The notes: generated by a model not told the origin, from the letters alone. 64,000 bases of DNA from an uncultured Rhodospirillaceae bacterium (GCA_964530335.1 CAZGYG010000006.1:2451-66450); one strand, 5' to 3'; shown: positions 3,513 through 41,835, numbered from the stretch's first letter. Numbers and translations: made by a program.

Positions 3513-4736
3513 ATGAACAAGCCCGGACGTCCCAGTTACGGCGCGCGCCTGGGCATCGGCGTGATCCACGCGCTGTTCCCGCTCGTCCCCCTCGTTTACC
3601 TGACGCGCGTGCTCAGCCCCGCCGAGCTCGGCTTCATCGGCCTGACGCTCGCCGGCACCATGATCGTCCAGGACCTCATCGCGCTGCGGGCCGAATCCGC
3701 GGTCGGCGGGGCCGAAGGCCCGAACGGGCCGCGTGCCACGCTCGATCGCGGCGTGGTGCTGGGCGTCGCGCTCGGCGGCTTGGCTATCGCGGGCGCCGCG
3801 TGCGCCGTGCTCGCCTTCGCCTTGCCGCGCTTTTCCGCCGTCTTCGCCCTGGCGCCGACGCTGGCGGCGATTCGCTTCATCGGCATGCTCGAATTGGCCG
3901 GGGTCACCGACGAAGGCCGGGCCAACCGGCACGGGGTCATTACCGCCGTGGGCAACCTGACCGGCTTCGCCTTGACCATCGGCTTCATCTCGGCGCTGGA
4001 GCTCAGTTGGGCGGGGCGCATCCTGGCGCTCGTCGTCGCCGAGGGCGGGGTCGTCGCCGTGCGCCTGGCGGTGCTCGCGCGTCTGGGCAAGCCGCACCGG
4101 GTCGCCTGGGATGCGGCGCGCGGCCGGACCCTGATCCACGAAGCAAGGCCCGAGCTGATCACCAGCTTGCTCGCCGTCGCGCTCGATCACGCCTCGCGCC
4201 TGGTCGCGCTGGGCGCGCTCGGCATGGCCCAGGTCGGGTTCCTGGTGGTCGCCTACCGGGTCGGCGCCGCCGTCCCGGCGATCAACAAGTCGCTGGCCTT
4301 CGCGCTCGGTCCCCGGGTCTGGGCCCGGATGGACGCGGGCGACCTGCGGGGCCTGGTGCGGCTGCACCTGGTCTATGGCGGCGCCGTGCTGGCCCTCGCG
4401 CTCGTCGTGGCGGGCGCCTGCCTGATCGCCACGGACGACGTGTTCGGCGCGGCCTTCGCAGTCGCGGCGCCCGCCGCCGCCGCTGTCTCGGTTGGGTACG
4501 GCTTCAAGGGGTTCCAGCGCGTGGCCGGGTTCATGCGCACCCGGCTCGGCATGCCCGCGCCCGACCCGTGGCATCAGGCGCTCGCCGTCGCGCTCGTGGT
4601 CGCGGTGGGTCTCGGGTTAGCGCCGAGCCTGGGCGTCACGGGGCTCGCGTTGGCGACGGCGCTGGGGCTCGCGACGGTGGCCGTGCTTTCGGTCGTGGGC
4701 GCCTACCGGGAATTCCTGGGCCGGCGCGGTCAGTAG
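3513..4736 (+). CDS. Polysaccharide/O-antigen flippase (Wzx/RfbX-like, MOP superfamily)
   Basis: About 12-TM protein with a typical Wzx N-terminus (GARLGIGVIHALFPLVPLVYLTRVLSPAELGFIGL). RBS gggagg lies before the ATG at 3513. Confidence 0.75.
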   Translation: MNKPGRPSYGARLGIGVIHALFPLVPLVYLTRVLSPAELGFIGLTLAGTMIVQDLIALRAESAVGGAEGPNGPRATLDRGVVLGVALGGLAIAGAACAVLAFALPRFSAVFALAPTLAAIRFIGMLELAGVTDEGRANRHGVITAVGNLTGFALTIGFISALELSWAGRILALVVAEGGVVAVRLAVLARLGKPHRVAWDAARGRTLIHEARPELITSLLAVALDHASRLVALGALGMAQVGFLVVAYRVGAAVPAINKSLAFALGPRVWARMDAGDLRGLVRLHLVYGGAVLALALVVAGACLIATDDVFGAAFAVAAPAAAAVSVGYGFKGFQRVAGFMRTRLGMPAPDPWHQALAVALVVAVGLGLAPSLGVTGLALATALGLATVAVLSVVGAYREFLGRRGQ

Positions 4737-5881
4737 GCCAGCGACTTCTGGATCGTGAAGGTCGCGCGGGCCAGGATTTCGGCGATGCGCGGCCCGCTGT
4801 GGCCGTCGCCGTAAAGCCCATCGCGCGGGTAACCGCCGTGGGCGAGCTGGGTTTCGATCGCCTTCTTGATGGCGTGCCGGTCGTAACCGACGTCGATCAC
4901 GTTGCCGGCGCGCTCGCGCCGGTTCTGCCGCGTCCCGATGTTGACCGCCGGCACCCCGAGAAACGCCCCTTCGCGAATCGCGCTCGACGAATTGCCGATC
5001 AGGCACGCCGAGGAGGCGATGACCCGGGCGTAGTCCTCGACCGCGAAGTTGCGGAACAGGTGGATCGGGAACCCCGGGTGCCGCGCGACGAAAAGCCGCA
5101 GCCCCTTCGAGGTGCTGTCCGAGCCGGCGTCCACGTTGGGCCACAGCCAGACCGTCGGCATGGCCAGGGCATGGATCGCCGCCAGCGTCTCCTCGATCTG
5201 GTGGAAGGCATCGCGGTACTCGGTCGTCACCGGATGCTGGAGCACGACGACGAAAGGCTTCGAGGCATCGAGCGAGGCGCCGGCGCCGCCGTGGGCATCG
5301 AAGAAATCCGCCGGCAGCCCGCGCTCGATGCCGACCAGCGGATCGAGCGACGGACATCCCGTGACGTGGACGGTTTCCGGCGCCTCGCCCATGCGGATCA
5401 GCCGCTCGCGCGACAGCTCGGTGGTCGCGAAATGCAGGTGCGCGAGCTTGCTGATGGCGTGGCGCACGCTTTCGTCGATCGAGCCGGTCACCTCGCCGCC
5501 CTGAGTGTGCGCGAGGGGAATGTTCATGTACGAGGCGGCGACCGCCGTGGCGAGCGTCTCGAACCGGTCGGCCACCGTCAGCACCACGTCGGGCTTGAGA
5601 TTCTCGAACTGGGTTGTCAGCTCGATGATGCCGAGCCCGGTCGACTTGGCCATGGTCGCCGGGTTTTCGCCCTCGATGATCGAGTAGACCCTGGCGGCGG
5701 GCTGGAAGCCGTCGCGCTCGATGACCTCGACAGCCGAACCGTAGCGGAACAGCAACGCCGAAGCGCCGACGATGAGCACGAGCTCGAGGTCGGGACGATC
5801 GCGCACCGCGGCCATGACCGACTTGATGCGGCCGTAGTTCGCCCGGCTGGCGACGACGACGCAGATCTTGCGGCGCGCCAT
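4730..5881 (-). CDS. neuC: UDP-N-acetylglucosamine 2-epimerase (hydrolysing), NeuC/LegG-like
   Basis: 383 aa with strong similarity to the NeuC family (ICVVVASRANYGRIKSVM...PDVVLTVADRFETLATAVAASYMNIPLAHTQGGEVTGSIDE...). Immediately upstream of a NeuB-like synthase. Confidence 0.85.
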   Translation of the reverse strand: MARRKICVVVASRANYGRIKSVMAAVRDRPDLELVLIVGASALLFRYGSAVEVIERDGFQPAARVYSIIEGENPATMAKSTGLGIIELTTQFENLKPDVVLTVADRFETLATAVAASYMNIPLAHTQGGEVTGSIDESVRHAISKLAHLHFATTELSRERLIRMGEAPETVHVTGCPSLDPLVGIERGLPADFFDAHGGAGASLDASKPFVVVLQHPVTTEYRDAFHQIEETLAAIHALAMPTVWLWPNVDAGSDSTSKGLRLFVARHPGFPIHLFRNFAVEDYARVIASSACLIGNSSSAIREGAFLGVPAVNIGTRQNRRERAGNVIDVGYDRHAIKKAIETQLAHGGYPRDGLYGDGHSGPRIAEILARATFTIQKSLAY

Positions 5882-6935: not shown

Positions 6936-7010
6936 AATGCCCTCCGCGAACGACTCGGTTCACTCTTGGCCCGCCTTCGCCGATGGGTCAAGGCGCTCGG
7001 CCGCGCTCGA

Positions 7011-7110
7011 CCCCCGCCCGGGCGCGCGGGCGCGCGTCCCATCGCCGAGCCCGTCCTTGCCCCACCCTCTCACGCCGCTGCTCGCCGGCCTCGCCTCCAT
7101 CTCGGTGCGC
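7011..7110 (+). repeat. Diverged direct-repeat copy A of the upstream region and first about 20 codons of the acyl-CoA synthetase gene (a pseudo-start)
   Basis: cccccgcccgggcgcgcgggcgc (23/23 identical) and atcgccgagcccgtccttgccccaccctctcacgccgctgctcgcc (46/46 identical) are shared with 8029-8140. The copy encodes LPHPLTPLLAG... and terminates after 28 codons. Confidence 0.85.
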
Positions 7111-7281: not shown

Positions 7282-7539
7282 ATGAGGACCGTTGTTCGTG
7301 CGCGCATCGATGAGCGGGTGAAGAACGATGCCGCCGCCGTGCTGGCGTCCATCGGGCTTACCGTGTCCGACGCCTTCCGTCTCATGATGGTGCGCATCGC
7401 CACCGAGAAGCGGCTGCCTTTCGAGCCGCTGGTGCCTAATGCGGAGACCATCGAGGCCATGCAGGCCGCCCGGCGCGGCGACGTGGTCACCGTCGGCAGC
7501 GTGGACAACCTGCTGGCGGATCTGAATGCGGACGATTAG
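7282..7539 (+). CDS. dinJ: DinJ/RelB-family type II antitoxin
   Basis: 85 aa (MRTVVRARIDERVKNDAAAVLASIGLTVSDAFRLMMVRIATEKRLPFE) with strong similarity to E. coli DinJ. The locus is locally low in GC. Confidence 0.85.
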   Translation: MRTVVRARIDERVKNDAAAVLASIGLTVSDAFRLMMVRIATEKRLPFEPLVPNAETIEAMQAARRGDVVTVGSVDNLLADLNADD

Positions 7540-7807
7540 ACGCACCACCGCCTTCAAGCGCGACTACAAACGTGAGAAGAAGGGTCGGCATCGCCAGACG
7601 CTCGACGACGAGCTGTCGAAGGCGGTAGGGATGCTCGCCGCCGACGAGCCGCTTCCGCAGCGTTATCACGACCATCTCTTGGCCGGGGAATGGAACGATC
7701 ATCGGGATTGCCACATCAAGCCCGATCTGGTGGTGATTTACCGGAAGCCGGGCGACGAGACGCTCGTTCTGGTGCGCCTCGGTTCTCACAGCGAACTTGG
7801 GGTGTGA
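7526..7807 (+). CDS. yafQ: YafQ/RelE-family mRNA interferase toxin
   Basis: 93 aa (…FKRDYKREKKGRHRQ…LPQRYHDHLLAGEWNDHRDCHIKPDLVVIYR) with strong similarity to E. coli YafQ. Overlaps dinJ by 14 nt. Confidence 0.85.
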   Translation: MRTIRRTTAFKRDYKREKKGRHRQTLDDELSKAVGMLAADEPLPQRYHDHLLAGEWNDHRDCHIKPDLVVIYRKPGDETLVLVRLGSHSELGV

Positions 7808-7849: not shown

Positions 7850-8029
7850 GGACATATCTCCTCTCCGTTCAAGCGCCGGCGCCAATCCCTCGCCGCGGCC
7901 GATCTTGCGGGACATCAGGCTCTCCATCCGCTCGACGAAAACATCGATCAGCACCTCGCCCGCGGGCCCACGCCGGGTCTCGGTGCGGGCCTGGGTGTTG
8001 GGGACGGTGTTGTAGACGGTCGGCCGCAC
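7850..8029 (-). pseudogene. Possible N-terminal remnant (about 60 codons) of an unidentified gene, lying between the relE stop and repeat copy B
   Basis: The minus-strand ORF begins MRPTVYNTVPNTQARTETRRGPAGEVLIDVFVERMESLMSRKIGRGEG and then runs antisense into relE. Only the first about 60 codons lie outside relE. No family recognised. Confidence 0.2.
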
Positions 8030-8140
8030 CCCCGCCCGGGCGCGCGGGCGCTATAGTCCCGCGTCGCATCGCCGAGCCCGTCCTTGCCCCACCCTCTCAC
8101 GCCGCTGCTCGCCCCCGGCTCGATCGCCTTCGTCGGCGCC
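8029..8140 (+). repeat. Direct-repeat copy B: the genuine upstream region and 5' end of the acyl-CoA synthetase gene
   Basis: See 7011-7110. Contains the TTG start at 8084 (MPHPLTPLLAPGSIAFVGASP). Confidence 0.85.
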
Positions 8141-10153
8141 TCGCCGCGCGAGGGTTCGCTCGGCCACACCATGCTGCGCGTGATCCGGCACGGCGGCTAT
8201 CGCGGCACGATTCACCCGGTCAATCCGAACTACGACCGCATCGAGGACCTGCCCTGCCACCCCTCGCTCGCGGCGATCGGCGAACCGGTCGACCTGGCCG
8301 TGCTGGCCGTCGCGAACAGCCGCATCGAGGCCGCGCTCGAGGAGGCGATCGCCGCCGGGGCCCGCGCCGCCACGATCTTCGCCAGCGGTTATTTGGAGAA
8401 CGACGGCGATCCGCCGCTATTGTCCCGGCTGCGCGAGCTCGCCCGGGCGGCAGGCCTGCCGGTGTGCGGCGGCAACGCCATGGGCTTCTACAACCTGGAC
8501 GCCCGGACGCGGGTGTGCGGGTATTTGAACACGGTCGGCCCCGAGCAGGGCGGCATCGCGTTCATCACCCATTCGGGCTCGGTGTTCAGCGCGTTAGCCC
8601 ACAGCGATCCGCGGCTTGCCTACAACCTGGTCGTGTCGTCGGGCCAGGAGATCGCCACCACCGTTGCGGGCTACGTCGATTACGCGCTCGACCAGGAGAC
8701 CACCCGGGTCATCGGGCTTTTCCTCGAGACGGTGCGCGACGCGCCCGGGTTCCTCGCCGCCGCCGCCAGGGCGCTTGAGCGCCAGGTTCCCATCGTAGTG
8801 CTCAAGGTGGGGGTGGCGGCGGAATCCGCGCGCCTCGCGGTCAGCCATTCCGGAGCCATCGCCGGCGACGACGCCGCCTACGAGGCGGCGTTTGACCGCT
8901 ACGGCATCGTCCGAGTCGCCAGCCTGGACGAGCTGGCCGCGACGCTTCTGCTGCTCGGCCAGCCGCGCCGCGCCCGCGCCGGCGGGCTCGCCGCCATGCT
9001 CGATTCGGGCGGCGAGCGCGGCATGTTGATCGACCTGGCCCAGCGCCACGCCGTACCCTTCGCGGCGATCGCGCCCGCGACCCGCGCCCGGCTCGCCGCC
9101 CGGCTCGATTATGGGCTCGAGCCGGTCAACCCGCTCGACGCCTGGGGCACCGGCAACGACTTCGAAGGGGTATTGCGCGACTGCTTCCTGGCGCTGGCCG
9201 AGGACAAGGACACCGCCGCCGCGGTCATCTTCGCCGACATCCGCGATGCGGGATTCCTGTGCGGTCCCTACGAGCGGGTGCTGCGCCACGTCCACGCCAC
9301 GGTCGGCAAGCCGATCGCGCTGGCGCCCAACTTCTCGGGCGTCGCCCACGGCGAGGTGGCGCTGCGGCTTACCCGCGCCGGCATCCCCGTGCTCGACGGC
9401 ACCGAGAACGCGCTGGCCGCGATCGGGCATCTGTTCCGCCTGCGCGATGCCTGGGCGCGCCCCGAGCCGACGCCGCCGCAAGCCGACGCCGCCGCCGTCG
9501 CGCGCTGGAACGCGCGGCTCGGCAACGGCACGCTCGACGAGGCGGAGGCCCTGACCCTGCTCGCCGAGTTCGGGGTGCCGGCGTCGCCGACCGAGGTGAT
9601 CGACAGCCCCGAGGCCGCGCTCGCCGCCGCCGAACGCTTCGGCTTCCCGGTCGCGCTTAAGACCGCGCAACCGGGGATCGCGCACAAGTCGGACGTCGAT
9701 GGCGTGCGGCTGGGATTGGCCGACGGCGAGGCGCTGATCGCCGCCTACGTCGAATTGGCCGCGCGGCTGGGCCGGCGCATGGTCGTGGCGCCCATGGCCG
9801 GGCCGGGCGTCGAGCTCGCGTTTGGATTGGTGACCGACGCGCAGTTCGGCACGCTGGTCATGGTCGGCGCCGGGGGTACGCTGATCGAGGTGCTGCGTGA
9901 TCGCGTGGTCGCCTTGCCGCCGTTCGACCGCGCGACCGCACGGCGGCTGATCGACCGGCTCGCGCTTCGCCACTTGCTGGGGGGTGTGCGCGGCCGGCCG
10001 CCGGCCGATGTCGAGGCGCTGGCCGAGGCGTTCGCGCGGTTCTCGGTGCTGGCGGCCACTCTCGGCCCCCGCGTGGCCGAGATCGACGTCAACCCGGTGA
10101 TCTGCGGGCCACGAGGGCCCCTCGCCGTCGACGCCCTGGTGGTCGCCCGCTAA
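8084..10153 (+). CDS. Acyl-CoA synthetase, NDP/ADP-forming (acetate--CoA ligase [ADP-forming] family; CoA-binding, SCS-like and ATP-grasp domains)
   Basis: 689 aa with an N-terminal CoA-binding domain (IAFVGASPREGSLGHTML), a central ligase-CoA domain and a C-terminal ATP-grasp domain (GFPVALKTAQPGIAHKSDVDGVRLGL). Confidence 0.8.
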   Translation: MPHPLTPLLAPGSIAFVGASPREGSLGHTMLRVIRHGGYRGTIHPVNPNYDRIEDLPCHPSLAAIGEPVDLAVLAVANSRIEAALEEAIAAGARAATIFASGYLENDGDPPLLSRLRELARAAGLPVCGGNAMGFYNLDARTRVCGYLNTVGPEQGGIAFITHSGSVFSALAHSDPRLAYNLVVSSGQEIATTVAGYVDYALDQETTRVIGLFLETVRDAPGFLAAAARALERQVPIVVLKVGVAAESARLAVSHSGAIAGDDAAYEAAFDRYGIVRVASLDELAATLLLLGQPRRARAGGLAAMLDSGGERGMLIDLAQRHAVPFAAIAPATRARLAARLDYGLEPVNPLDAWGTGNDFEGVLRDCFLALAEDKDTAAAVIFADIRDAGFLCGPYERVLRHVHATVGKPIALAPNFSGVAHGEVALRLTRAGIPVLDGTENALAAIGHLFRLRDAWARPEPTPPQADAAAVARWNARLGNGTLDEAEALTLLAEFGVPASPTEVIDSPEAALAAAERFGFPVALKTAQPGIAHKSDVDGVRLGLADGEALIAAYVELAARLGRRMVVAPMAGPGVELAFGLVTDAQFGTLVMVGAGGTLIEVLRDRVVALPPFDRATARRLIDRLALRHLLGGVRGRPPADVEALAEAFARFSVLAATLGPRVAEIDVNPVICGPRGPLAVDALVVAR

Positions 10154-11157: not shown

Positions 11158-12066
11158 TTGATCCAGAACCCGATCCCGTGGCCAGACGGCGCGCGCTGCG
11201 CGGTCTGCTTCAGCTTCGACGTCGACGCCGAGAGCCTGATCCACCTGGGCTACGGCGCCGACGCGGACAACAAGGTGGCGAGCCTTTCCGAGCTCGAATA
11301 CGACGCCGAGATCGCGGTGCCTCGCATCCTGGCGCTGTTCCAGCGCTATGGCCTGAAGCAGACGTTCTTCGTCCCGGCGTGGTGCCTGGAGCGGCACCCG
11401 GCGATGACCGAGCTGATCCTGGAGCACGGCCACGAGATCGCGCACCACGGCTATTTGCACGAGAACCCGAACAAGCTGACGCGCGAGCAGGAGCACTACT
11501 GGCTCAGCCGCTCGATCGCGACGATCGAGCGCATGACCGGACGGCGCCCGCGGGGTTACCGGGCACCGTCGTACGCCTTCTCGCGCCACACCGCCGAGTT
11601 GCTGGTCGAGGAAGGCTTCGCCTACGACGCCTCGCTGATGGGCGACGACATCCCCTATGTGCTCGACTACGCCGGAAAGCGCATCGTCGAGCTGCCGTCG
11701 AGCCGTGCGCTCGACGACTGGACGTATTTCATGCTGAGCCGGGACTTCAACTGGATGCTGCCGATCCATGCGCCGGAGCGGGGCTACGAAGTCTACCGCG
11801 CCGAGTTCGAGGCGGCGTGGCGTTACGGCGGTCTGTGGATCGCGGTGTGGCACCCGTTCGTCAGCGCGCGCCTCGGGCGCATCGACGCCATGGACCACCT
11901 GATCCGCGACATGCATGACCGGGGCGGCGTCTGGTTCGCGCCCATGGAGCGCATCGCGGCGCACGCGCGCGCGGTGATGGAAAGCGGCGCCTGGACGCCG
12001 CGCGTCAGGCCCCTGCCCTACCCGCGCGGGCCGATCCCCGAGTTGTCGGGCGAGGCCGCGGACTGA
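11158..12066 (+). CDS. Polysaccharide deacetylase family protein, tandem paralogue of the preceding gene
   Basis: About 55% identical to the upstream paralogue (CFSFDVDAESL; GHEIAHHGYLHE). TTG start at 11158 is preceded by ggagtagg; the alternative ATG at 11113 would overlap the upstream gene by 41 nt. Confidence 0.75.
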   Translation: MIQNPIPWPDGARCAVCFSFDVDAESLIHLGYGADADNKVASLSELEYDAEIAVPRILALFQRYGLKQTFFVPAWCLERHPAMTELILEHGHEIAHHGYLHENPNKLTREQEHYWLSRSIATIERMTGRRPRGYRAPSYAFSRHTAELLVEEGFAYDASLMGDDIPYVLDYAGKRIVELPSSRALDDWTYFMLSRDFNWMLPIHAPERGYEVYRAEFEAAWRYGGLWIAVWHPFVSARLGRIDAMDHLIRDMHDRGGVWFAPMERIAAHARAVMESGAWTPRVRPLPYPRGPIPELSGEAAD

Positions 12067-13208
12067 TGGAGCCGATCGCCACCATCCCCAACCCGGACCT
12101 CGCGGTCGGCACCGACAACAAGGCCCGCTGGAACCTGCCGGACCACCGGCGGCACGGCTTCCACAACCTGCACACCCTCGCCCGCTACGGCATGAGCTTC
12201 CGCGCCGCGCGGGTGATGACGCTTTCCAAGCGCATGGACATGCGCATCCCCGAGCTGCCCGAGGTGCGGCGGCTGACCTCGCTGCCCTGGTTCTCGGCCA
12301 TGGTGGTGATCCGGGGCCAGCACATCCTCTACGAGCGCTACGCGCCCGACTTCGGCCCCGACCGGCCGCACAACATCCAGTCGATCAACAAGACCGTGCT
12401 GAACCTGGCGGTCGGCCGCCTAGTCGAGGACGGCAAGATCGACGTCGGCCGCAAGGTGAAGGAGTACCTGCCCGAGATCGGTTCGGGCTACGCCGAGGCG
12501 ACCGTCCAGCAGGTCCTCGACATGGACGTGGCCAACGACTACACCGAGGACTTCACCGATCCGAACTCGACGTACTGGACCCACGAGGAGGCCATGGGCT
12601 GGCGCTTGCCGCGCGACCCGGCCCGCGAGGAGACCCAGAAATCCTTCGTCGTCCGCATCCGGAGCGACGACGTGACGAACCGGCTCGACCACATCCAGTA
12701 CAAGGACGCGAACAGCGTGGTGCTGGGGTGGATCGTCGAGCGGGTCGGCGGCCGGCCCTGGCGGGCGATTTTCGCCGACATCGCCGACGCGGCCGGGATC
12801 GAGGGCGTGCTCCACACCACCACCGACCGCGAGGGCTTCCCCACTCTGGAGGGCGGGGTCTGCATCACCGCCCGCGACCTCGCCCGCTACGCCGCGATCT
12901 TCGTCCGCCGGGGCCAGGGTGTCGATGGCCGCGCCGTCGGCAGCGCCCTGTTCATCGAGCGGAGCCTGGCCGCCGGCGTGCGGCTGGCCCCGCCGCGCGA
13001 GCACCTGCGCTACAGCAACCAGCTCAACACCGACGGCCGCTGGATCGGCCACGGCGGCTACGGCGGCCAGTACATGCTGGCGGACCTGACCAGCGGCGTG
13101 ATCGGCGTGTTCTTGAGCGTGGTCGAGGACAAGGACGGCTACCCCCTGCCCTACTACCCCCCGCTCATCGCCATGCTGGCCGAGATCGCACGGCTGGACG
13201 ACGCATGA
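12066..13208 (+). CDS. Beta-lactamase-fold serine hydrolase (class C beta-lactamase-related / 6-aminohexanoate-dimer-hydrolase-like)
   Basis: 380 aa with an S-x-x-K active-site motif (IQSINKTV). Start overlaps the upstream stop (TGATG). Confidence 0.75.
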   Translation: MEPIATIPNPDLAVGTDNKARWNLPDHRRHGFHNLHTLARYGMSFRAARVMTLSKRMDMRIPELPEVRRLTSLPWFSAMVVIRGQHILYERYAPDFGPDRPHNIQSINKTVLNLAVGRLVEDGKIDVGRKVKEYLPEIGSGYAEATVQQVLDMDVANDYTEDFTDPNSTYWTHEEAMGWRLPRDPAREETQKSFVVRIRSDDVTNRLDHIQYKDANSVVLGWIVERVGGRPWRAIFADIADAAGIEGVLHTTTDREGFPTLEGGVCITARDLARYAAIFVRRGQGVDGRAVGSALFIERSLAAGVRLAPPREHLRYSNQLNTDGRWIGHGGYGGQYMLADLTSGVIGVFLSVVEDKDGYPLPYYPPLIAMLAEIARLDDA

Positions 13209-13321
13209 ACGCCGCGGCTCCCTGGGACGCGTCCGATCCGCTCGCAAGCAAGCCTGTGCCGCGCCAGGGCGCCGATCCTTACTTGCGCGACGGGGCGCAT
13301 CTGACGCACACCTCGCCTTAG
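13205..13321 (+). repeat. Diverged duplicate of the 5' end of the HpaB-family gene (a pseudo-start, 38 codons)
   Basis: Encodes MNAAAPWDASDPLASKPVPRQGADPYLRDGAHLTHTSP* (compare MPNELPWKTPDPLVGKPVPRAGADPYLRDGAQY at 13780). About 80% nucleotide identity over about 70 bp. Its ATG overlaps the hydrolase stop (ATGA). Confidence 0.85.
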
Positions 13322-13626
13322 GCGGCCGCCCCCGCGGCCCTTGGCAAGCCCCTGATCTCCTTGCCCACGGCGCGCTCGGCCATCACCAGGTCGAGCTGGG
13401 CTTGCAGGTTCATCCAGAACTGGGGGTTGGTCCCGAACCAATGCCCGAGGCGCAAGGCCGTGTCCGCGGTTATGCCGCGCTTGCCCTGAATCAGTTGCGT
13501 CACTCGGTTGGGCGGTACTCGGAGCCGGCGGGCGAGCTCGGTCGGCGTGATGCCAAGCTCGCCCAACTCGTCCTTGAGCACCACGCCTGGGTGAATTCCT
13601 ACCCTCAACACGGTCTTTCCCTTCAT
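13318..13626 (-). CDS. higA: HigA-family antitoxin (XRE-type HTH; addiction-module antidote protein)
   Basis: MKGKTVLRVGIHPGVVLKDELGELGITPTELARRLRVPPNRVTQLIQGKRGITADTALRLGHWFGTNPQFWMNLQ is the canonical HigA motif set. Start chosen at the internal Met (13626) of the 13318..13686 ORF. Confidence 0.8.
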   Translation of the reverse strand: MKGKTVLRVGIHPGVVLKDELGELGITPTELARRLRVPPNRVTQLIQGKRGITADTALRLGHWFGTNPQFWMNLQAQLDLVMAERAVGKEIRGLPRAAGAAA

Positions 13627-13826
13627 CGGTGATAGTCCACGATCTCGACGTTGACCGGGCCTACGGCGTCGGATCGACATTGCCACTCATCTCCGCAGTT
13701 ATTCCGCTCGCCATACAGATACGATCCGATGCTGCGAGTCTTAAGGCTCGACTCCCGTAACCCACTCCGGACTCTTCCCATGCCCAACGAACTTCCGTGG
13801 AAGACCCCCGACCCTCTGGTCGGCAA
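13623..13826 (-). pseudogene. Degenerate higB (RelE/ParE-fold toxin, PF05015-like) remnant; only the C-terminal about 30 residues are recognisable
   Basis: C-terminus ...LYGERNNCGDEWQCRSDAVGPVNVEIVDYHR* matches the HigB C-terminal consensus (...LKGDR...W.I.F...DVEIVDYH). The N-terminal two thirds are unrecognisable and overlap the hpaB start. Overlaps the higA start (ATGA). Confidence 0.45.
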
Positions 13827-15276
13827 GCCGGTGCCGCGCGCGGGCGCCGACCCTTACTTGCGCGACGGCGCGCAGTACCGGGAATCGCTCCGCGACGGGC
13901 GCACGGTGATCGTGGCCGGGCGCGACGTGGCGGACGTGACGGCGGAACCGGGGCTCAAGCGCGGCATCGATACCCTGGCCGGGCTGTTCGACGCGCAGTT
14001 CGATCCGGTGCACCGCGACGTGACCACGGCGATCGACCCCGAGAGCGGCGAGCGCATCGCCACCGGCTGGCTGGTGCCGCGCACCGTCGACGATCTCAAG
14101 CGCCGCAGCCGGATGATCAAGTTCTCGACCCAGCGCACCTTCGGGGTGTTCGGCCGCCCGCCCGATTACGGCACGGTCAACCCGATCGGCTTCCTGGCCT
14201 TCGCCCACCTGATCGCGAAGGAGGACAGCGAGGCGCGCGCCAAGATCGAACGCTGCGTGCGCGTCGGCCAGCGCCACAACCTGGTCTCGACCGACATCAT
14301 CGTCGACGTCCAGGCCAACCGGAAGCTCACGGGCGCCGAGCTGCCGGGCCGGCTGCGCGTCATCGAGCGGCGCAAGGACGGCGTCGTGCTGTACGGCGCC
14401 AAGGCCGGCAACTCGGTGCTGGCCCAGGGCAACATGGGTTCGCTCGCCACCATCCTGAACCCGACGCTGCCAGACGACTGCGCGATCCTGGCCGCGCTGC
14501 CGGCCAACGCGCCGGGACTCAAGCTCTTGCTGCGCGAGGCCGTGACCCGGGGCGACGAGGATCCCGACGACCATCCGCTCGACGCCCAGGGCGAGGAGGC
14601 CGACGGAATCCTGATCTTCGACCGGGTGTTCGTGCCCGACGAGTACGTGTTCAGCGTCGGCAACCGCAAGGTGCTCGAGTATTACCACCTGATCGGCCAG
14701 CTCGCGTTCTGGAACATCGCGTCGCGCCTCGGCTACCGGGCCGAGATCTTCGCCGGCGCGGTCCAGCTCATCGTCAACGTGCTGGGCACCGACCACGTCC
14801 CCGCCGTGCGCGCCGCCGTGACCGAGGTGATCGGCTACGCCAGCGCGCTGCGCGCCTTCATGGTCGCCGCCGAGGAGAAGGCGAGCCCGACCGAGACCGG
14901 GGTGATGCTGCCGGACCACGCGCTGGTCACCGCCGGGCGGCTGCACTCGATCGTCGAGTACCCGCGCGTCATGCAGGTGCTGCGCGAGCTGTCGGGCCAG
15001 GGGTTGGTCAGCCGCGTGCCGCGCAAGACCTGGGAGCGCGCCGACCTCGGCCCCATGCTCGATGAGTTCCTTCCCGGGTTCGAGACCAGCGCGCGCGACA
15101 AGAACCGGCTGTTCAACCTGATCTGGGACCTGACGTGCAGCGCCCACGCCATGCGCGTCGCCATCTTCGAGAACGTCAACGCGACCCCGGCCTCGACGCT
15201 GCGCGAGGAGCTCTACAAGGTCTACGACCGCTCGGAGGGCATCGCCGTGGTCAAGCGCCTGGCCGGCATGGCTTGA
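13780..15276 (+). CDS. HpaB-family flavin-dependent monooxygenase (4-hydroxyphenylacetate 3-monooxygenase oxygenase-component family)
   Basis: About 498 aa from the ATG at 13780 (MPNELPWKTPDPLVGKPVPRAGADPYLRDG...), with HpaB N- and C-terminal domains. Confidence 0.75.
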   Translation: MPNELPWKTPDPLVGKPVPRAGADPYLRDGAQYRESLRDGRTVIVAGRDVADVTAEPGLKRGIDTLAGLFDAQFDPVHRDVTTAIDPESGERIATGWLVPRTVDDLKRRSRMIKFSTQRTFGVFGRPPDYGTVNPIGFLAFAHLIAKEDSEARAKIERCVRVGQRHNLVSTDIIVDVQANRKLTGAELPGRLRVIERRKDGVVLYGAKAGNSVLAQGNMGSLATILNPTLPDDCAILAALPANAPGLKLLLREAVTRGDEDPDDHPLDAQGEEADGILIFDRVFVPDEYVFSVGNRKVLEYYHLIGQLAFWNIASRLGYRAEIFAGAVQLIVNVLGTDHVPAVRAAVTEVIGYASALRAFMVAAEEKASPTETGVMLPDHALVTAGRLHSIVEYPRVMQVLRELSGQGLVSRVPRKTWERADLGPMLDEFLPGFETSARDKNRLFNLIWDLTCSAHAMRVAIFENVNATPASTLREELYKVYDRSEGIAVVKRLAGMA

Positions 15277-15334
15277 TCCCCCTCGTTCCGGAGCCATAGT
15301 ATCCCGCCGGCGTGCCGATTCGCGAGGGGAAGTC

Positions 15335-17116
15335 ATGGAATCAGGAGGGGAGCGCCGGGTCGAGCGCCGCCTTGCCGCGATCCTGGCCGCCGACGTGGCC
15401 GGCTACAGCCGGCTCATGGGCGTCGACGAGGAGGGCACGCTCGCGCAATTGAAGGGCCATCGGCGCGCCCTCGTCGACCCCAAGATCACGGAACACCGCG
15501 GGCGGATCGTCAAAACCACCGGCGACGGCATGCTGGTGGAGTTCGCCAGCGTGGTCGACGCCGTGCGTTGCGCCGCCGAAATTCAACGCGGCATGGTCGA
15601 GCGCAACGTCGACGTGCCGCCCGATCGGCGCATCGAGTTCCGCGTCGGCATCAACGTCGGCGACATCATCATCGACGGCGACGACATCTTCGGCGACGGC
15701 GTCAACATCGCGGCGCGCCTGGAAACCCTCGCCGCGCCCGGCGAAGTCTGGGTCGGCCGCACGGTTCGGGAGCAGGTGCGCGACAAGCTCGCGTTCGATT
15801 TCGAGGACATGGGCGAGCGCGAGGTCAAGAACATCGCCCGGCCGATCAAGGCCTATCGCATCGTGGCCAAGGAGCCCGTCACCGGCCCGGCCGCGGGTGT
15901 GGCGGACGCACCGTCGCTGCCGGTCAAATCCTCGATCGCCGTCCTGCCCTTCACCAACATGTCGGGCGATCCCGAGCAGGAATACTTCGCCGACGGCATG
16001 GTCGAGGACATCATCACCGCCCTGTCCCGGTTCAACCAGTTGTTCGTGATCGCCCGCAACTCGAGCTTTACCTACAAGGGCCGGGCGGTCGACGTGCGCC
16101 AGGTGGCCAAGGAGCTGGGCGTGCGCTTCGTGCTGGAAGGCAGCGTGCGCAAGGCGGGCAACCGCGTGCGCATCACCGGGCAGTTGATCGATGCCGCGAC
16201 CGGCGCCCATCTCTGGGCGGACCGGTTCGACGGTGGCCTGGAGGACGTCTTCGACCTCCAGGACAAGATCACCGCAAGCGTCGTCGGGGCGATCGAACCG
16301 ACCCTGCGCAAGGTGGAGATCGAACGCGCACGGCGCCGGCCCATCGAGAACCTCGATGCCTACGATCTCTATCTTCGCGCCTTGCCGCACGTCTACGCGT
16401 TTCGCCCAGACGACAATCGCCAGGGCTTCGAGCTGCTCCTGAAGGCGATCGACCTCGATCCCACCTATGCGCCGGCGCTGGCCTATGCCGCCTGGTGCCT
16501 CGAACAGCGCATCGTGCGGGGCTGGCCGCCGATCGGAGAGGACGACACAGGCACGGCGATCGCCCTCGCACGACGGGCGGTCGCCGCCGGTAGTGGCGAT
16601 GCGATGGCCTTGGTCGCCGCCGGGTTTGTCCTGGTGATGGTGGCGCGGGACTATGACACCGGCCTCGACGCCGTGCGCCGCGCGCTCGCGCTCAACCCCG
16701 GCTCCGGGTTCGTCACGTTCGTCTCGAGCGGCGCGCTGCTGTTCAGTGGCAATGCGGACGAGGCGTTGGTCCATATCGAACGGGCCATGGCCCTCAGCCC
16801 CTTGGATCCCGGCTTTTTCATGTACCTGGCCATCGCCGGTCTTGCCCACCTCGCGAACGGCCGCCCCGAGCAGGCCTTGCAACTGGGCAAGAAGTCGGCG
16901 GCCCTTTACCCCGACTGGGACACCGCCTACTGGCTCCTGGTCCCCGCGCATGTCCAACTCGGCAATCTGGGGGAGGCGCAGGCCGCGCTTGCCAGGCTCG
17001 TGGCCCTGACACCCGGAATGACGGTGTCCGGTACCCGCCGGCGTTTTCCGATCAGGAACCAGGAATTCTTGAACATGGTGCTCGACGGTCTCCGCGCGGC
17101 TGGCCTGCCGGAATGA
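15335..17116 (+). CDS. Class III adenylate/guanylate cyclase with a C-terminal TolB-like/TPR regulatory region
   Basis: N-terminal CHD cyclase domain (LAAILAADVAGYSRLMG...IVKTTGDGMLVEF...GINVGDII...GDGVNIAARLE) followed by about 400 aa of TPR-like helical repeats. Confidence 0.85.
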   Translation: MESGGERRVERRLAAILAADVAGYSRLMGVDEEGTLAQLKGHRRALVDPKITEHRGRIVKTTGDGMLVEFASVVDAVRCAAEIQRGMVERNVDVPPDRRIEFRVGINVGDIIIDGDDIFGDGVNIAARLETLAAPGEVWVGRTVREQVRDKLAFDFEDMGEREVKNIARPIKAYRIVAKEPVTGPAAGVADAPSLPVKSSIAVLPFTNMSGDPEQEYFADGMVEDIITALSRFNQLFVIARNSSFTYKGRAVDVRQVAKELGVRFVLEGSVRKAGNRVRITGQLIDAATGAHLWADRFDGGLEDVFDLQDKITASVVGAIEPTLRKVEIERARRRPIENLDAYDLYLRALPHVYAFRPDDNRQGFELLLKAIDLDPTYAPALAYAAWCLEQRIVRGWPPIGEDDTGTAIALARRAVAAGSGDAMALVAAGFVLVMVARDYDTGLDAVRRALALNPGSGFVTFVSSGALLFSGNADEALVHIERAMALSPLDPGFFMYLAIAGLAHLANGRPEQALQLGKKSAALYPDWDTAYWLLVPAHVQLGNLGEAQAALARLVALTPGMTVSGTRRRFPIRNQEFLNMVLDGLRAAGLPE

Positions 17117-17151
17117 TGGGTCCAATGTAGGGTTCTCGATGACGACGACGG

Positions 17152-17265
17152 GTCGCCATCTTCGAGAACGTCAACGCGGCCTCGACGCTGCGCGAGGAGC
17201 TCTACAAGGTCTACGACCGGTCGGAGGGCATCGCCGTGGTCAAGCGCCTGGCAGGCATGGCGTGA
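17152..17265 (+). repeat. Near-identical duplicate of the last about 115 bp of the HpaB-family gene (a pseudo-3' end)
   Basis: gtcgccatcttcgagaacgtcaacgcg...ggcatcgccgtggtcaagcgcctgg...atggc.tga matches 15157-15276 at about 97% identity, apart from a 6-bp in-frame deletion. It is in frame: VAIFENVNAASTLREELYKVYDRSEGIAVVKRLAGMA*. Confidence 0.9.
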
Positions 17266-17272
17266 ACACCCG

Positions 17273-20019: not shown

Positions 20020-20045
20020 GTTGCGGTAAACCTTCTCCCTGCGGG

Positions 20046-20073
20046 CGCGACGGCGGATGCTCCCGCCGTCGCG
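20046..20073 (+). terminator. GC-rich hairpin after the M20 peptidase gene (putative intrinsic terminator without a clear U-tract)
   Basis: cgcgacggcgg-atgctc-ccgccgtcgcg, a perfect 11-bp stem with a 6-nt loop, 27 nt downstream of the stop codon. Confidence 0.35.
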
Positions 20074-20137
20074 GGTGGCGAGCGGAGCGAGCCGGATGAG
20101 GGACCTTACGCACCGGTCACGAACACAGGGCGCAACC

Positions 20138-21178
20138 ATGCCGCGGGCGTTTCGATTTCCCGGACTTCTCGCCATCGTTACGGTGGGTTTGTTCCTGAGT
20201 TTCGCCGCCGCCGCGGGACCGCTCGATGACGGGGTCGCGGCGTACGAGCAGGGCGACTATGCGACGGCGGTGGAGCTTTGGCGCCCGCTGGCCGAGCAAG
20301 GCGACTCCTGGGCCCAGTTCAACCTCGGCTACATGTACGACAACGGCCTTGGCGTGACGCAGGACGCCGCCGAGGCGGCGCGCTGGTACCGGATGGCGGC
20401 CGACCAGGGGCACGCCGGTGCTCAAACCAGCCTCGGCTACATGTACTACGACGGCCGGGGCGTGGCACAGGACGATGCCGAAGCGGCGCGGCTCTACCGC
20501 CTGGCGGCCGAGCAGGGCGTCGCCTTGGCCCAGAACAACCTCGGTTACATGTACCAGAACGGCTGGGGCGTACCTCAGGACGACACCGAGGCGGTGAACT
20601 GGTACCGCCAGGCGGCCGAGAAGGGTGACGCCGACGCCCAGAACAACCTTGGCATCATGTACGATGCCGGCCGGGGCGTGCCACAGGACGACGCCGAGGC
20701 AGTGAACTGGTACCGCCTGGCGGCCGATCAGGGGCACGCCGGCGCCCAAGGCAATCTCGGCGCCATGTACGCCAACGGCCGGGGCGTGGCGCAGGACGAA
20801 GCCGAAGCGGTGCGGCTTTACCGCCTGGCGGCCGACCAGGGGCACTCCGGCGCCCAGTACAACCTCGGCCTCGCGTACGACAGCGGCCGGGGCGTGGCGC
20901 AGGACTTCGTCGAGGCCGCGCACTGGTACCGCATGGCTGCCGACCGGGGCGACGGCTATGCCCAGGTCAACCTCGGAGTCATGTACCTGAACGGCGAAGG
21001 CGTAGAGCAGGATCTCGTTCAGGCCCATCTCTGGTTCGACCTGGCGGCGGCGGGGTTTGCGCCGGGCGAGGACCAGGATTTCGCGCTGGAGAACCGCGAC
21101 GGGGTCGCGGCCGAGATGAACCCGGATCAGGTGGCGGAGGCGCAGCGGCTGGCGGCCGAGTGGCAACCGCTACCGTGA
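20138..21178 (+). CDS. Sel1-repeat (SLR/TPR-like) protein, secreted; 7 Sel1 repeats
   Basis: N-terminal signal peptide (MPRAFRFPGLLAIVTVGLFLSFAAAAG) followed by 7 x 36-aa Sel1 repeats (...A..WYR.AA.QG.A.AQ.NLG.MY..G.GV.QD...) and a conserved C-terminal tail (...LENRDGVAAEMNPDQVAEAQRLAAEWQPLP). Confidence 0.85.
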   Translation: MPRAFRFPGLLAIVTVGLFLSFAAAAGPLDDGVAAYEQGDYATAVELWRPLAEQGDSWAQFNLGYMYDNGLGVTQDAAEAARWYRMAADQGHAGAQTSLGYMYYDGRGVAQDDAEAARLYRLAAEQGVALAQNNLGYMYQNGWGVPQDDTEAVNWYRQAAEKGDADAQNNLGIMYDAGRGVPQDDAEAVNWYRLAADQGHAGAQGNLGAMYANGRGVAQDEAEAVRLYRLAADQGHSGAQYNLGLAYDSGRGVAQDFVEAAHWYRMAADRGDGYAQVNLGVMYLNGEGVEQDLVQAHLWFDLAAAGFAPGEDQDFALENRDGVAAEMNPDQVAEAQRLAAEWQPLP

Positions 21179-21277
21179 GGGGGGCGGTCGGAGTGCCGTC
21201 GTGGCGCACGAAGATGCGGGCCCGGCTTGGTCGCCTGATGCTGAGAATGAAGGGTGCTCACTAAGGAGGAGGTAACC

Positions 21278-22747
21278 ATGTCGTGGATGCTGCGATTCCC
21301 TAGGCCGGTCGTCGTCGCGGCGGCCCTCCTCCTCGGATTTCCCGCGACCGCGGGACCGCTCGAGGACGGGGTCGCGGCGTATGAGCAGGGCGACTATGCG
21401 ACGGCGGTGGAGCTTTGGCGCCCGCTGGCCGAGCAAGGCGACTCCTGGGCCCAGTTCAACCTCGGCTACATGTACGAGTACGGCCTGGGCGTGACGCAGG
21501 ACTATGCCGAGGCGGCGCGGCTCTACCGCCTGGCGGCCGACCAGGGGAACGACGCGGCTCAAGACAACCTCGGCTACCTGTACGAGAGCGGCCTGGGCGT
21601 GACGCAGGGCCATGCCGAGGCGGCGCGGCTTTATCGCCTGGCGGCCGAGCAAGGGAACGCCAACGCCCAAGACAACCTCGGCTACCTGTACGAGAACGGC
21701 CTGGGAGTGCCACAGGACTATGCCGAGGCGGTGAATTGGTACCGCCAGGCGGCCGAGCAGGGCGACGCCGACGCTCAAGACAGTCTCGGCTACATGTACC
21801 AATACGGCCTCGGCGTGGCGGAGGACGACAACGAAGCGGTGAACTGGTACCGCCTGGCGGCCGAGCAGGGGCTCGCCAATGCCCAGTTCGACCTCGGCTA
21901 CATGTACGAGAGCGGTCTGGGCGTGGCGCAGGACCTTGCCGAGGCGGCGCGGCTTTATCGCCTGGCGGCCGAGCAAGGGGACGCCGACGCCCAGAACAAC
22001 CTCGGAGTCATGTACAGCACCGGCCGGGGCGTGCCGCTGGACGACGTCGAGGCGGTACGGCTCTACCGCCTGGCGGCCGAGCAGGGGGATGCGGGAGCCC
22101 AGAACAATCTTGGCTACATGTACGACAGGGGCGAGGGCGTGCCGGAGGACGACGCCGAGGCGGTGCGGCTCTATAGCCTGGCGGCCGACCAGGGGTACGC
22201 CGAAGCCCAGAATAACCTCGGCCTCATGTACGACTACGGCCGGGGCGTGCCGCTGGACGACGCCGAGGCGGTGAACTGGTACCGCCAGGCGGCCGAGCAG
22301 GGGTTCGCCGAAGCCCAAAACAACCTCGGCTACATGTACGCCCACGGCGAGGGCGTGGCGGAGGACGCCACCGAGGCGGTGCGCTGGTACCGCCTGGCGG
22401 CCGAGCAGGGCGACGCCTGGGCCCAAAACAATCTCGGCTGGATGTACGAAACCGGTGATGGCGTGGCGGAAGACGACGCCGAGGCGGTGCGTTGGTACCG
22501 CCAAGCGGCCGAGCAGGGACACGGCAAGGCCCAGAGCAACCTCGGCTACTTGTACCAGAACGGCGAGGGCACAGAGGTGGACCTCGTTCAGGCCCACCTC
22601 TGGTACGACCTCGCGGCGTCGGGGTTTGCGCCGGGCGAGGACCTGGATTTCGCGCTGGAGAACCGCGACGCGGTCGCGGCCGAGATGACCCCGGATCAGT
22701 TGGCGGAAGCGCAGCGGCTGGCGGCCGAGTGGCAGCCCGTGGAGTGA
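21278..22747 (+). CDS. Sel1-repeat protein, secreted; 11 Sel1 repeats (tandem paralogue)
   Basis: RBS aaggaggagg, signal peptide (MSWMLRFPRPVVVAAALLLGFPATAG), 11 Sel1 repeats, and the same C-terminal tail as the upstream paralogue. Confidence 0.85.
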   Translation: MSWMLRFPRPVVVAAALLLGFPATAGPLEDGVAAYEQGDYATAVELWRPLAEQGDSWAQFNLGYMYEYGLGVTQDYAEAARLYRLAADQGNDAAQDNLGYLYESGLGVTQGHAEAARLYRLAAEQGNANAQDNLGYLYENGLGVPQDYAEAVNWYRQAAEQGDADAQDSLGYMYQYGLGVAEDDNEAVNWYRLAAEQGLANAQFDLGYMYESGLGVAQDLAEAARLYRLAAEQGDADAQNNLGVMYSTGRGVPLDDVEAVRLYRLAAEQGDAGAQNNLGYMYDRGEGVPEDDAEAVRLYSLAADQGYAEAQNNLGLMYDYGRGVPLDDAEAVNWYRQAAEQGFAEAQNNLGYMYAHGEGVAEDATEAVRWYRLAAEQGDAWAQNNLGWMYETGDGVAEDDAEAVRWYRQAAEQGHGKAQSNLGYLYQNGEGTEVDLVQAHLWYDLAASGFAPGEDLDFALENRDAVAAEMTPDQLAEAQRLAAEWQPVE

Positions 22748-22797
22748 ATGAGCGCCGGCCCATCGTGCGCGGCCACCGCCTCGGCGTACGATGATCC

Positions 22798-22869
22798 GAG
22801 GTGCGGCTGAACGCGCCGGTGCCGGGCGCGGCGCTTACCGCGACCGCCGCGCTTACGTGACCGCACCTC
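22798..22869 (+). other. Long imperfect hairpin between Sel1 paralogues 2 and 3
   Basis: gaggtgcgg ... ccgcacctc arms enclose about 55 nt containing internal cgcttac direct repeats. It lies immediately upstream of the signal-peptide-less third paralogue. Confidence 0.4.
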
Positions 22870-22897
22870 AACCGCGATTGTCCAGCAAGGATCGGAC

Positions 22898-24088: not shown

Positions 24089-24214
24089 AGGGCACGGTTG
24101 ACGAGCTCCCGCCCTTCGTGCGGCGCCGCGTGCTGTCCGCGTGCGATTGCCTGAGGGCAGAGGAAGTTGACGTTTACTCCTGCCGACAACGAACCCGTCA
24201 TGGCGAGGAGGGCG

Positions 24215-24395
24215 ACCTTCCTTCGCCCGCCGAAGCGGGCTTCGCGAAGGCGGGAGCCCGACGACGCCATCCAGGGCAAGCGCACGAGCGGTCGCCCTGG
24301 ATCGCTCCCGCCTTCGCGAAGCCCGCCTTCACGCACCATAGCGGCGGCTTCACGCTTCGGCGGGCGAAGGAAGGTCGCCTTCGGCTCGCGAAGAC
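24215..24395 (+). repeat. Composite palindromic (MITE/REP-like) element, family 1
   Basis: Nested inverted repeats gcccgccgaagcgggcttcgcgaaggcgggagc / gctcccgccttcgcgaagcccgcc / cgcttcggcgggcgaagg. A related copy (cgcccgccttcgc...cttcggcgggc...gggcgaagga) lies at 45790-45875. Confidence 0.6.
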
Positions 24396-24465
24396 GGTTC
24401 GAAATTTGCGGGCGGGTCAAGGTCAACGATCGCTTGTATGACGAGAGGCTGAACGCGAGGGGCCC

Positions 24466-31927: not shown

Positions 31928-32003
31928 GTCCCCATCGTCTAGCGGCCCAGGACGCTGGCCTCTCACGCCGGAAACAGGGGTTCGATTCCCCTTGGGGACG
32001 CCA
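31928..32003 (+). tRNA. tRNA-Glu (anticodon CTC)
   Basis: 76-nt cloverleaf GTCCCCATCGTCTAGCGGCCCAGGACGCTGGCCTCTCACGCCGGAAACAGGGGTTCGATTCCCCTTGGGGACGCCA with a 7-bp acceptor stem, anticodon loop C-T-CTC-A-C, T-loop GTTCGATTC and 3' CCA. Closely resembles canonical bacterial tRNA-Glu. Confidence 0.85.
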
Positions 32004-41530: not shown

Positions 41531-41582
41531 AAGCTACGGTACCGGGGGTGCGGCTTGCGGGGAAGCGGAGGAGCGACGCCAC

Positions 41583-41822: not shown

Positions 41823-41835
41823 CCCTCCGTTGCGG

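Follow-up and report, generated by a model that had tools for sequence, protein, structure and literature searches.

An orphan higA between two copies of an hpaB start: the probable scar of an old insertion with long target duplication, and one of a series around the same operon in an uncultured Rhodospirillaceae bacterium

In a window of 64,000 nucleotides from an uncultured Rhodospirillaceae bacterium (GCA_964530335.1 CAZGYG010000006.1:2451-66450; the window is the whole stretch of DNA analysed), an antitoxin gene, higA, and the remnant of its toxin gene, higB, lie between two copies of the 5' end of a gene of the HpaB monooxygenase family, the left copy being a fossil still coupled to the upstream serine hydrolase gene. 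The locus is best explained as a scar left by an old insertion with long target duplication; this reading carries a probability of roughly 0.7. It is not unique: four long-repeat insertion scars were found in the 64 kb and four more in relatives around the same operon, which gives the higA scar its place in a series and in a previously described but little-studied class of insertions. The initial annotation of this DNA had missed the other scars; its observation of a duplicated gene start was confirmed, and its interpretation was partly supported. The features of the locus, numbered from the first nucleotide of the window, are as follows.

12066-13208, plus strand: serine hydrolase gene, beta-lactamase fold (PF00144, 80.4 bits)
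13205-13299, plus strand: fossil hpaB 5' end, the left direct-repeat copy, with homology robust from 13219
13300-13779: insert between the repeat copies, 480 bp, comprising an 18-nt spacer, higA, the higB stub and 100 nt without assignment
13318-13626, minus strand: higA, intact antitoxin gene of 102 codons (TIGR02607)
13623-13679, minus strand: higB remnant, the last 17-18 codons plus stop (custom HigB profile)
13680-13779: 100-nt segment without assignment, G+C about 0.58, its last ~20 nt resembling the hpaB leader of two relatives, L070 and L068
13780-15276, plus strand: working HpaB-family monooxygenase gene (PF11794, 186.6 bits; PF03241, 128 bits)

The start of the hydrolase gene shares 1 nt with the stop of the deacetylase gene upstream (TGATG), and its own TGA overlaps the fossil ATG at 13205 as ATGA. 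This ATG opens a 38-codon open reading frame (ORF; 13205-13321) that begins MNAAAPWDASDPLASKPVPRQGADPYLRDGAH and had been proposed to be homologous to the true HpaB start at 13780. Formal alignment bore this out: from the ATG onwards the two segments were identical without gaps at 70 of 95 positions, so that 13780-13874 of the working gene forms the right copy of the repeat, with 56/68 identities over the final 68 nt and 64/81 over a core (13219-13299 versus 13794-13874) for which self-BLAST of the window returned E = 1e-12. The runner-up ungapped match of the fossil 95-mer in the 64 kb reached 47/95 (z = 9.2). Chance similarity or metagenome mis-assembly, for which there speaks the nature of the source, an assembled metagenome contig and nothing more, is made practically negligible by these scores and by six independently assembled contigs from different samples that were 99.8-100% identical over the hydrolase, fossil, higA and hpaB, junctions included; the agreement of six independent contigs shows that the structure is not an assembly artefact. 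The few population variants among the independent contigs all fell within genes, and none in the fossil or the insert.

The fossil ORF does end on the higA stop, as had been noticed, its TAG at 13319-13321 overlapping the complement of that stop at 13318-13320. The weight placed on this coincidence did not survive: homology already ends at 13299, and the last 22 nt of the pseudo-ORF are therefore read-through into inserted DNA, which makes its termination there incidental. A short ORF joined to the end of a gene in a tight operon can thus be the fossil of a neighbour.

The prediction of a higBA-type module between direct repeats of the hpaB start was upheld, the insert having a G+C content of 0.633 as opposed to 0.694 and 0.700 in the flanking genes. 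Its higA product matched the HigA equivalog TIGR02607 at 91.0 bits (cut-off 47.7) over profile positions 5-80 of 81, and also PF01381 (HTH_3) at 28.4 bits; an identical HigA protein was encoded on seven contigs. The start of higA overlaps the stop of higB (ATGA), the toxin gene lying upstream of the antitoxin gene, and in its helix-turn-helix antitoxin, reversed toxin-antitoxin gene order and overlapping stop and start the module resembles HigBA systems in general. It differs from them in that the toxin has been cut to 17 recognisable codons and the promoter and operator are gone, and hence is not a functional pair. The best non-self homologue of HigA was 73% identical and stood beside an intact HigB (PF05015) on a contig with Rep3 and ParA genes, a plasmid-like context; a search of plasmid DNA yielded HigA-level similarity only, extending at most 27 nt into the toxin remnant.

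For the toxin itself, a custom profile of 94 positions was built from 114 HigB homologues. Within the 67-codon minus-strand ORF at 13623-13826, which the initial annotation had suggested comparing with HigB profiles and which gave no Pfam or NCBIfam match, this profile recognised only the last 17 residues, CRSDAVGPVNVEIVDYH, corresponding to its positions 78-94 of 94 (E = 5e-5 when the region was searched in six frames; E = 0.0045 when all ORF fragments in the window were searched). In a tblastn comparison of the stub region with the HigB of locus L061, 11 of 16 residues were identical. The claim of a C-terminal HigB remnant therefore holds, and its supposed length of about 30 residues does not, 17 being statistically recognisable and 30 requiring two ad hoc indels. 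A functional pair would have an intact PF05015 HigB of about 92-94 amino acids upstream of higA; six-frame profile searches found the C-terminus only, and no HigB signal appeared in any frame of 13680-13779. Because an intact 94-codon higB would reach about 130 nt into hpaB, a full-length toxin restored by frameshift correction is excluded, and higB is dead, as had been supposed. A profile search of all ORF fragments gave no second HigB signal in the 64-kb window, leaving higA intact and with no toxin partner within 64 kb, an orphan antitoxin as originally described. No palindrome and no sigma-70-like site of the kind expected for the promoter and operator of a functional higBA was found in 13680-13779, and promoter, terminator and Rfam scans of 13150-13900 gave nothing. 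Inactivation was probably by deletion of the first ~75 codons of higB together with its promoter and not by slow decay, since the surviving 17 codons are about as similar to their homologues (11/16) as is HigA (73%). A partial analogy is offered by the orphan type VI secretion immunity arrays of Vibrio cholerae, which remain when effector-immunity modules displace one another in sequence and in which an antidote is kept after its toxic partner has been lost by recombination at a module boundary (PMC5361080); the system and context there are different, and the likeness is one of analogy only.

The state of the site before insertion was sought in relatives. A genome scan with the hydrolase recovered 54 loci, in only one of which hpaB followed directly downstream. 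This locus, L047, from a Lake Baikal alphaproteobacterial metagenome-assembled genome (MAG), encodes a hydrolase and an HpaB each 88% identical to the proteins of the window; its hydrolase gene, with TAG at 520-522, overlaps an hpaB whose ATG lies at 515 (ATGGGTAG), and the insert is absent. The overlap without insert supports ancestral translational coupling of hydrolase and hpaB, as the initial annotation had proposed. Over the 66 nt that could be compared, identities were 46/66 for fossil and L047, 53/66 for the true start and L047, and 54/66 for fossil and true start. An apparent grouping at codons 11-14 of the fossil with L068 and of the true start with L047 was discarded, the pairwise identities over the 66 nt (46-55/66) being star-like.

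Nobusato 2000 (Gene 259:99) first reported restriction-modification systems inserted with long target duplication, and the class was surveyed by Furuta 2010 (PMC2853133) and later reviewed (PMC3874152). Its features are the lack of any other mobile element, direct repeats on either side of the insert that measure around 100 bp (46-423 bp; more than 30 bp by definition), and a single copy of the repeated sequence at the empty site (PMC2853133); the repeats often span translation starts or stops, so that the target gene survives (PMC2853133, PMC3874152). At the higA locus the repeats measure 81-95 nt at 79% and 74% identity respectively, and the single copy is seen in L047, the one comparator at 88% protein identity. 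The 480-bp insert holds no transposase or integrase, only higA and the higB stub, and has no inverted repeats at its ends; the main called genes from 5.9 to 22.7 kb belong to Pfam families other than those of mobility, not all minor ORFs having been scanned. As the locus displays every feature of the class except the type of cargo, it was filed as an old, degraded member. It differs from published cases in its host, an uncultured alphaproteobacterium, and in its age, with 79% repeat identity and a dead toxin. A classical transposon or insertion-sequence event was rejected, there being no inverted repeats and a repeat of 81-95 nt as against target duplications of 2-14 bp.

A second scar of the same kind was detected at the other end of the gene, when the last ~115 nt of hpaB matched the window twice in a comparison with relatives. 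Its components are these.

15154-15282, plus strand: true hpaB 3' end, the left copy of the second repeat (self-BLAST versus 17149-17271)
15335-17116, plus strand: inserted adenylate/guanylate cyclase plus TPR gene (PF00211 and TPR families)
17149-17265, plus strand: fossil hpaB 3' end including TGA, 7 nt from the stop of a convergent EamA gene

The self-BLAST alignment of this pair spans 129 nt at 90.7% identity (E = 3e-45). Relative to 15154-15276 the fossil is shorter by one in-frame deletion of 6 nt and has four mismatches, none of which alters an amino acid; over the last 120 nt it differs at 3 positions from the hpaB of the window itself as against 12-19 from relatives. The cyclase gene was absent from L047, L068 and L070, and an independent contig, L071, was 99.7% identical across it and confirmed the structure. 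Because 5' and 3' fossils bracket exactly 13300-17148, both could in principle have arisen at one stroke, a 3.85-kb segment (higA, higB stub, foreign hpaB and cyclase) having replaced the interior of a resident hpaB, or else tandem paralogues having been reduced by deletion. This was rejected as very improbable on the unequal divergence of the fossils (17/81, or 21%, for the 5' pair versus 4/117, or 3.4%, for the 3' pair; Fisher p = 1e-4), which persists when account is taken of the 5' segment of hpaB evolving ~2.2-fold faster than the 3' segment among orthologues. The 3' fossil is, moreover, closest to the window's own gene, L070 has a 5' end of the true type with no cyclase gene, and events elsewhere that left only one repeat demonstrate that either end can come about by itself. 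The unequal divergence, the affinity of the 3' fossil and the condition of L070 indicate that the two hpaB scars are separate events, the cyclase insertion, with its ~120-bp duplication of the hpaB 3' end, being independent of and more recent than the higA event.

A search for direct repeats across the window by self-BLAST revealed two further scars beyond hpaB, referred to here as the third and fourth events.

6991-7086, plus strand: fossil leader and first 10 codons of a CoA-ligase gene (TTG at 7057), left repeat of the third event
7282-7807, plus strand: intact relB-yafQ toxin-antitoxin pair (PF04221, 64 bits; PF15738, 108 bits)
8014-8113, plus strand: third-event right repeat, holding the leader and TTG start (8084) of the working CoA-ligase gene, which spans 8084-10153
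41473-41524, plus strand: fossil ribosome-binding site (RBS) with the opening 13 codons of a DAO/GCV_T gene (805 codons), left repeat of the fourth event
41525-42033: fourth-event insert, 509 bp, with a 79-codon ORF (41583-41822) without Pfam match and palindromes resembling repetitive extragenic palindromic (REP) elements
42034-42085, plus strand: start of the working DAO/GCV_T gene 42046-44463, right repeat of the fourth event

The third-event copies aligned over 105 nt at 83.8% identity (E = 3e-26 versus 8014-8113), and the relB-yafQ structure was confirmed on four independent contigs. The repeat of the fourth event is 52 nt long and 92.3% identical (E = 2.7e-14 versus 42034-42085); its copies are translated alike, as MKSHARVVVIGGG, their two codon differences being AGC/TCC for Ser and GTC/GTG for Val.

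Among relatives, the closest, L070 (hpaB 91% identical in nucleotides), has downstream of hpaB an intact higBA of the type found in L068 (1861-2447), set between 86-nt repeats (1747-1832 and 2581-2666) that copy the 3' end of an EamA gene and are 98% identical, both differences being synonymous; a palindrome at 2456-2489, upstream of higB, is likely to be its operator. In L068 an MCP gene (8171-9919) lies between 128-nt repeats (7503-7630 and 9992-10118; 97.7% identical) that begin 6 nt past the hpaB stop and copy the 3' end of a convergent 75-codon gene, the fossil copy having a 1-nt indel and one non-synonymous change. Locus L034, from a distant MAG, contributed two adjoining events: a MerB-like gene between 70-nt repeats of the hydrolase 3' end (3034-3103 and 4053-4122), and a DinB-like gene flanked by 102-nt repeats (4134-4235 and 4963-5064) that copy the 3' end of a gene for a 2-hydroxyacid dehydrogenase. 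A direct repeat in L123 was dismissed, since it lies within an RTX-like protein as part of its internal repetition. Junction sequences, on reading, displayed neither convincing microhomology nor motifs shared at the ends.

The repeats of the eight events were unrelated to one another; there being thus no shared attachment core, and no recombinase among the neighbouring genes, a site-specific integrative element was rejected. Integrase-mediated elements such as phage 21 and e14 in icd, and islands in tRNA genes, likewise bring a replacement gene end, leaving the target gene intact and the displaced end as a fossil that differs mostly at synonymous sites. The present events differ from that type in that no integrase gene stands in or beside any insert and the repeat is a different one for each insert. 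They share with the class of long target duplications a small module without transposase or integrase, long repeats (52-129 nt here) that span a start or stop codon, an atypical G+C content of the insert and an addictive module as cargo, and depart from the published cases consulted in what is carried: restriction-modification systems there, toxin-antitoxin pairs together with cyclase, MCP, MerB-like and DinB-like genes here. HigB and YafQ family toxins are mRNA interferases, and with such toxins and such other genes as cargo a nuclease encoded by the cargo is not a general explanation. The process had been suggested to depend on DNA breakage by the restriction enzyme (Furuta 2010, PMC2853133); now that the class includes cargo with no DNA-cutting activity, a mechanism driven by the host is favoured. 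In a limited literature search no report was met of toxin-antitoxin cargo for this class, although such a report may exist.

How chromosomal toxin-antitoxin modules move without transposases or integrases is a long-standing question, and it is the cluster of events more than the single scar that gives the region its interest as a tractable system for recombinase-free module movement. It provides a natural series with toxin-antitoxin cargo at three stages (higBA intact, relB-yafQ intact, and higA orphaned, its toxin dead), and these inserts sit beside ordinary genes inserted likewise; one empty site at least is available for comparison. The series lends itself, too, to a concrete test, that of whether the repeat copies are two functional alleles.

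Within the reading of the higA locus as an old insertion with long target duplication, hydrolase and hpaB would at the outset have been translationally coupled by an overlapping stop and start, as in L047. A higBA module would then have lodged between them, with the ~81-95 bp around the hpaB start becoming twofold: the left copy, still coupled to the hydrolase, would be a dead start, and the right copy would head the working gene. A later deletion would have removed the first ~75 codons of higB and the promoter of the module, leaving the last 17 codons and an intact higA. That the target is duplicated, as the initial annotation had it, is secure for an 81-nt repeat (13219-13299); that the duplication arose in situ is not required, as one copy may have been imported.

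The imported-copy route, which is preferred at about even odds within that reading, would need no staggered cut of the transposase type. The cargo would have come from a related genome attached to a homologous gene end. Its integration would have taken either a homologous exchange on one side and an illegitimate join, within the recipient gene end, on the other, or the circularisation of the fragment followed by Campbell-type integration; the end of the resident gene would have been displaced to become the fossil. Homology-facilitated illegitimate recombination and Campbell-type insertion both integrate heterologous DNA that bears a short homologous anchor, without a dedicated recombinase, and in the latter the anchor is necessarily duplicated; their relevance to the window is suggested by the mostly synonymous differences between repeat copies. 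Repeats of ~50-130 bp might persist as being long enough to mediate or accompany integration and too short for quick excision, while addiction to a live toxin-antitoxin pair would penalise loss of the module.

The alternative origin is that higBA inserted ~95 bp into hpaB, the target being duplicated in situ by a staggered break and fill-in (e.g. non-homologous end-joining capture), and that the fossil then decayed neutrally. The architecture of repeats and insert suits this route, and repeat identity falls with the apparent age of the cargo, from 98% at the higBA of L070 through 84% at relB-yafQ to 79% at the dead higB. The frameshift and non-synonymous change in the L068 fossil are what neutral decay predicts, as is the mixture in the old pair flanking higA, where 6 synonymous stand against 3-4 non-synonymous differences at codons conserved among orthologues. 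In the three young repeat pairs, by way of contrast, all 8 codon differences were synonymous, including a Ser AGC/TCC switch, an outcome with P = 0.001 under in situ duplication and a neutral fossil, which suggests that the copies diverged as functional alleles, one of them imported with the cargo. The mismatches within the 95 nt at the higA locus are also unevenly spread (13/27, then 12/68), in a manner that mirrors the variability of orthologues and not uniform decay, and we know of no enzyme that makes staggered cuts of ~100 nt. On this balance duplication in situ is judged unlikely.

Several observations weigh against the insertion reading or its import sub-model. Inclusion of the L068 pair raises the p value for synonymous-only divergence to 0.006-0.02, and for the old higA-flanking pair alone the mixture of changes gives p = 0.13-0.21. 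No donor arrangement, that is an intact higBA of the window type adjoining hpaB, was found. The first 27 nt of the fossil and true starts are identical at only 14 positions, and the duplicated unit may therefore exclude the start codon. The empty-site comparator is a single one, on a contig that ends inside the hydrolase gene. Hydrolase and hpaB may, furthermore, have been uncoupled before the present higA module came in, which would then be a later replacement, for the working leader and first codons resemble those of L070 and L068, in which the upstream neighbours are different; L068 bears a higBA of another type at this junction and lacks a fossil there.

A wider proposal can be put forward only tentatively, and we hold it to be rather doubtful: that small modules, conspicuously toxin-antitoxin pairs, enter the chromosomes of this lineage mainly by a recombinase-free route, the cargo being attached to 50-130 bp from the end of a neighbouring gene and placed beside the resident gene, so that a long direct repeat is left across a start or stop codon, with no DNA cleavage by the cargo and with addiction stabilising the inserts. 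If this were true, toxin-antitoxin modules would be autonomous Campbell-type cassettes, which would explain their movement without recognisable mobile elements.

The surroundings of hpaB are very fluid among close relatives. In L066 the deacetylase gene is followed directly by hpaB, and the hydrolase is absent at that position. In L068 and L069 the order is hydrolase, a different and intact type of higBA with its higA stop 3 nt from that of the hydrolase, a 456-nt spacer, a DUF4440 gene and hpaB; the first of these (4528-5576) has neither a repeat nor an hpaB fossil. The 456-nt spacer of L068 contains a 47-nt inverted repeat (5198-5244 and 5447-5493) with a perfect 21-nt core. L070 retains between the deacetylase stop and hpaB (111-169) a 45-nt stub of the hydrolase 5' end that has lost its start codon, indicating deletion of the hydrolase in that lineage. 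At about 1652-1690 of the same locus the final codons of hpaB are duplicated in tandem over 19 nt (CCGGAATGGCTTAGGTTTT and CCGGAATGGCGTAGGTTCC). In relatives 60-68% identical in HpaB the core consists of deacetylase and hpaB, often with an M20 peptidase gene and without the hydrolase, from which it follows that the hydrolase is itself an accessory insertion in the clade.

This fluidity bears on one further explanation, in which the hydrolase was the cargo: a fragment from a donor in which hydrolase and hpaB were coupled, running from the deacetylase gene to the first 95 nt of hpaB, would have entered a genome where higA, the higB stub and hpaB were present beforehand, homology in the deacetylase region serving as its anchor and an illegitimate join lying just downstream of higA. 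The accessory nature of the hydrolase, the deacetylase-hpaB pair that lacks it in the 60-68% relatives, its absence at this position in L066, its 45-nt stub in L070, and the 3-nt spacing of hydrolase and higA stops without a repeat in L068 are all in keeping with such an event, the final structure of which is indistinguishable with present data from that left by insertion of higBA. The tight overlap of deacetylase and hydrolase would, however, have to be rebuilt or co-imported, and the window, L068 and L069 share one gene order from the CoA-ligase gene as far as the hydrolase, with 78-80% of nucleotides identical, which suggests that the hydrolase was inherited vertically; the explanation is accordingly regarded as quite improbable, and the insertion of higBA into a coupled hydrolase-hpaB pair is retained.

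As to the working gene, a score of 242 bits against the HpaB-1 equivalog TIGR02309, below its cut-off of 480, places the product in the HpaB family without warranting its assignment as 4-hydroxyphenylacetate 3-monooxygenase. The initial annotation had located the promoter and RBS of hpaB inside the dead higB, a claim that found no support, no promoter-like site having been detected there. The ~20 nt before the hpaB ATG resemble the leader of L070 and more weakly that of L068, the likeness to these leaders being weak (11/19 by hand count), and the working HpaB begins MPNELPW where that of L070 begins MPESLPW; this higB stub is lacking in L070 and L068 alike; because leader and first codons match a relative with no higA of the window type, they are not obviously derived from higB. 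The gene is probably transcribed from the upstream operon, antisense through higA, and translated, it would appear, from its own weak leader of the GGA type. Such co-transcription, to which the failure to find a terminator-like site points, is at least as likely as a promoter within the dead higB. The case shows too that selfish DNA can split an operon and leave it functional.

Exact look-ups of the window HpaB matched nothing, though a 100% identical cluster exists; no relatives were confirmed by scanning metagenomes with the HpaB protein alone, and a scan with an HpaB alignment returned relatives of at most 68% identity, the higA event itself not being among them. In loci L076-L119, at 45-68% HpaB identity, polysaccharide-deacetylase-family and M20 peptidase genes recurred in either order as neighbours of hpaB, and this recurrence points to a conserved pathway.

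Some minor observations concern the remainder of the window. In the third event the yafQ stop is followed, before the right repeat begins, by 206 nt that resemble a gene fragment on the minus strand, with no Pfam match. Dispersed repeats of ~40 nt, 90% identical (39800-39838, 41832-41870, 41958-41998 and 46142-46182) and including the palindrome GGATGCCCGGCACGAGGCCGGGCATGAC, look like REP elements or intergenic elements of the miniature inverted-repeat transposable type. The sole Rfam/ARAGORN match in the window was a tRNA-Glu (CTC) at 31928-32003, remote from all scars. Finally, ~4.4 kb at 20020-24477 are occupied by three ORFs of 108-nt (36-amino-acid) Sel1 repeats (PF08238), with 7 and 11 repeat units in the two that were scanned; no flanking direct repeat was found for this block at E < 1e-6, and it separates M20 peptidase and amidohydrolase genes that are adjacent to one another in L047 and L068.

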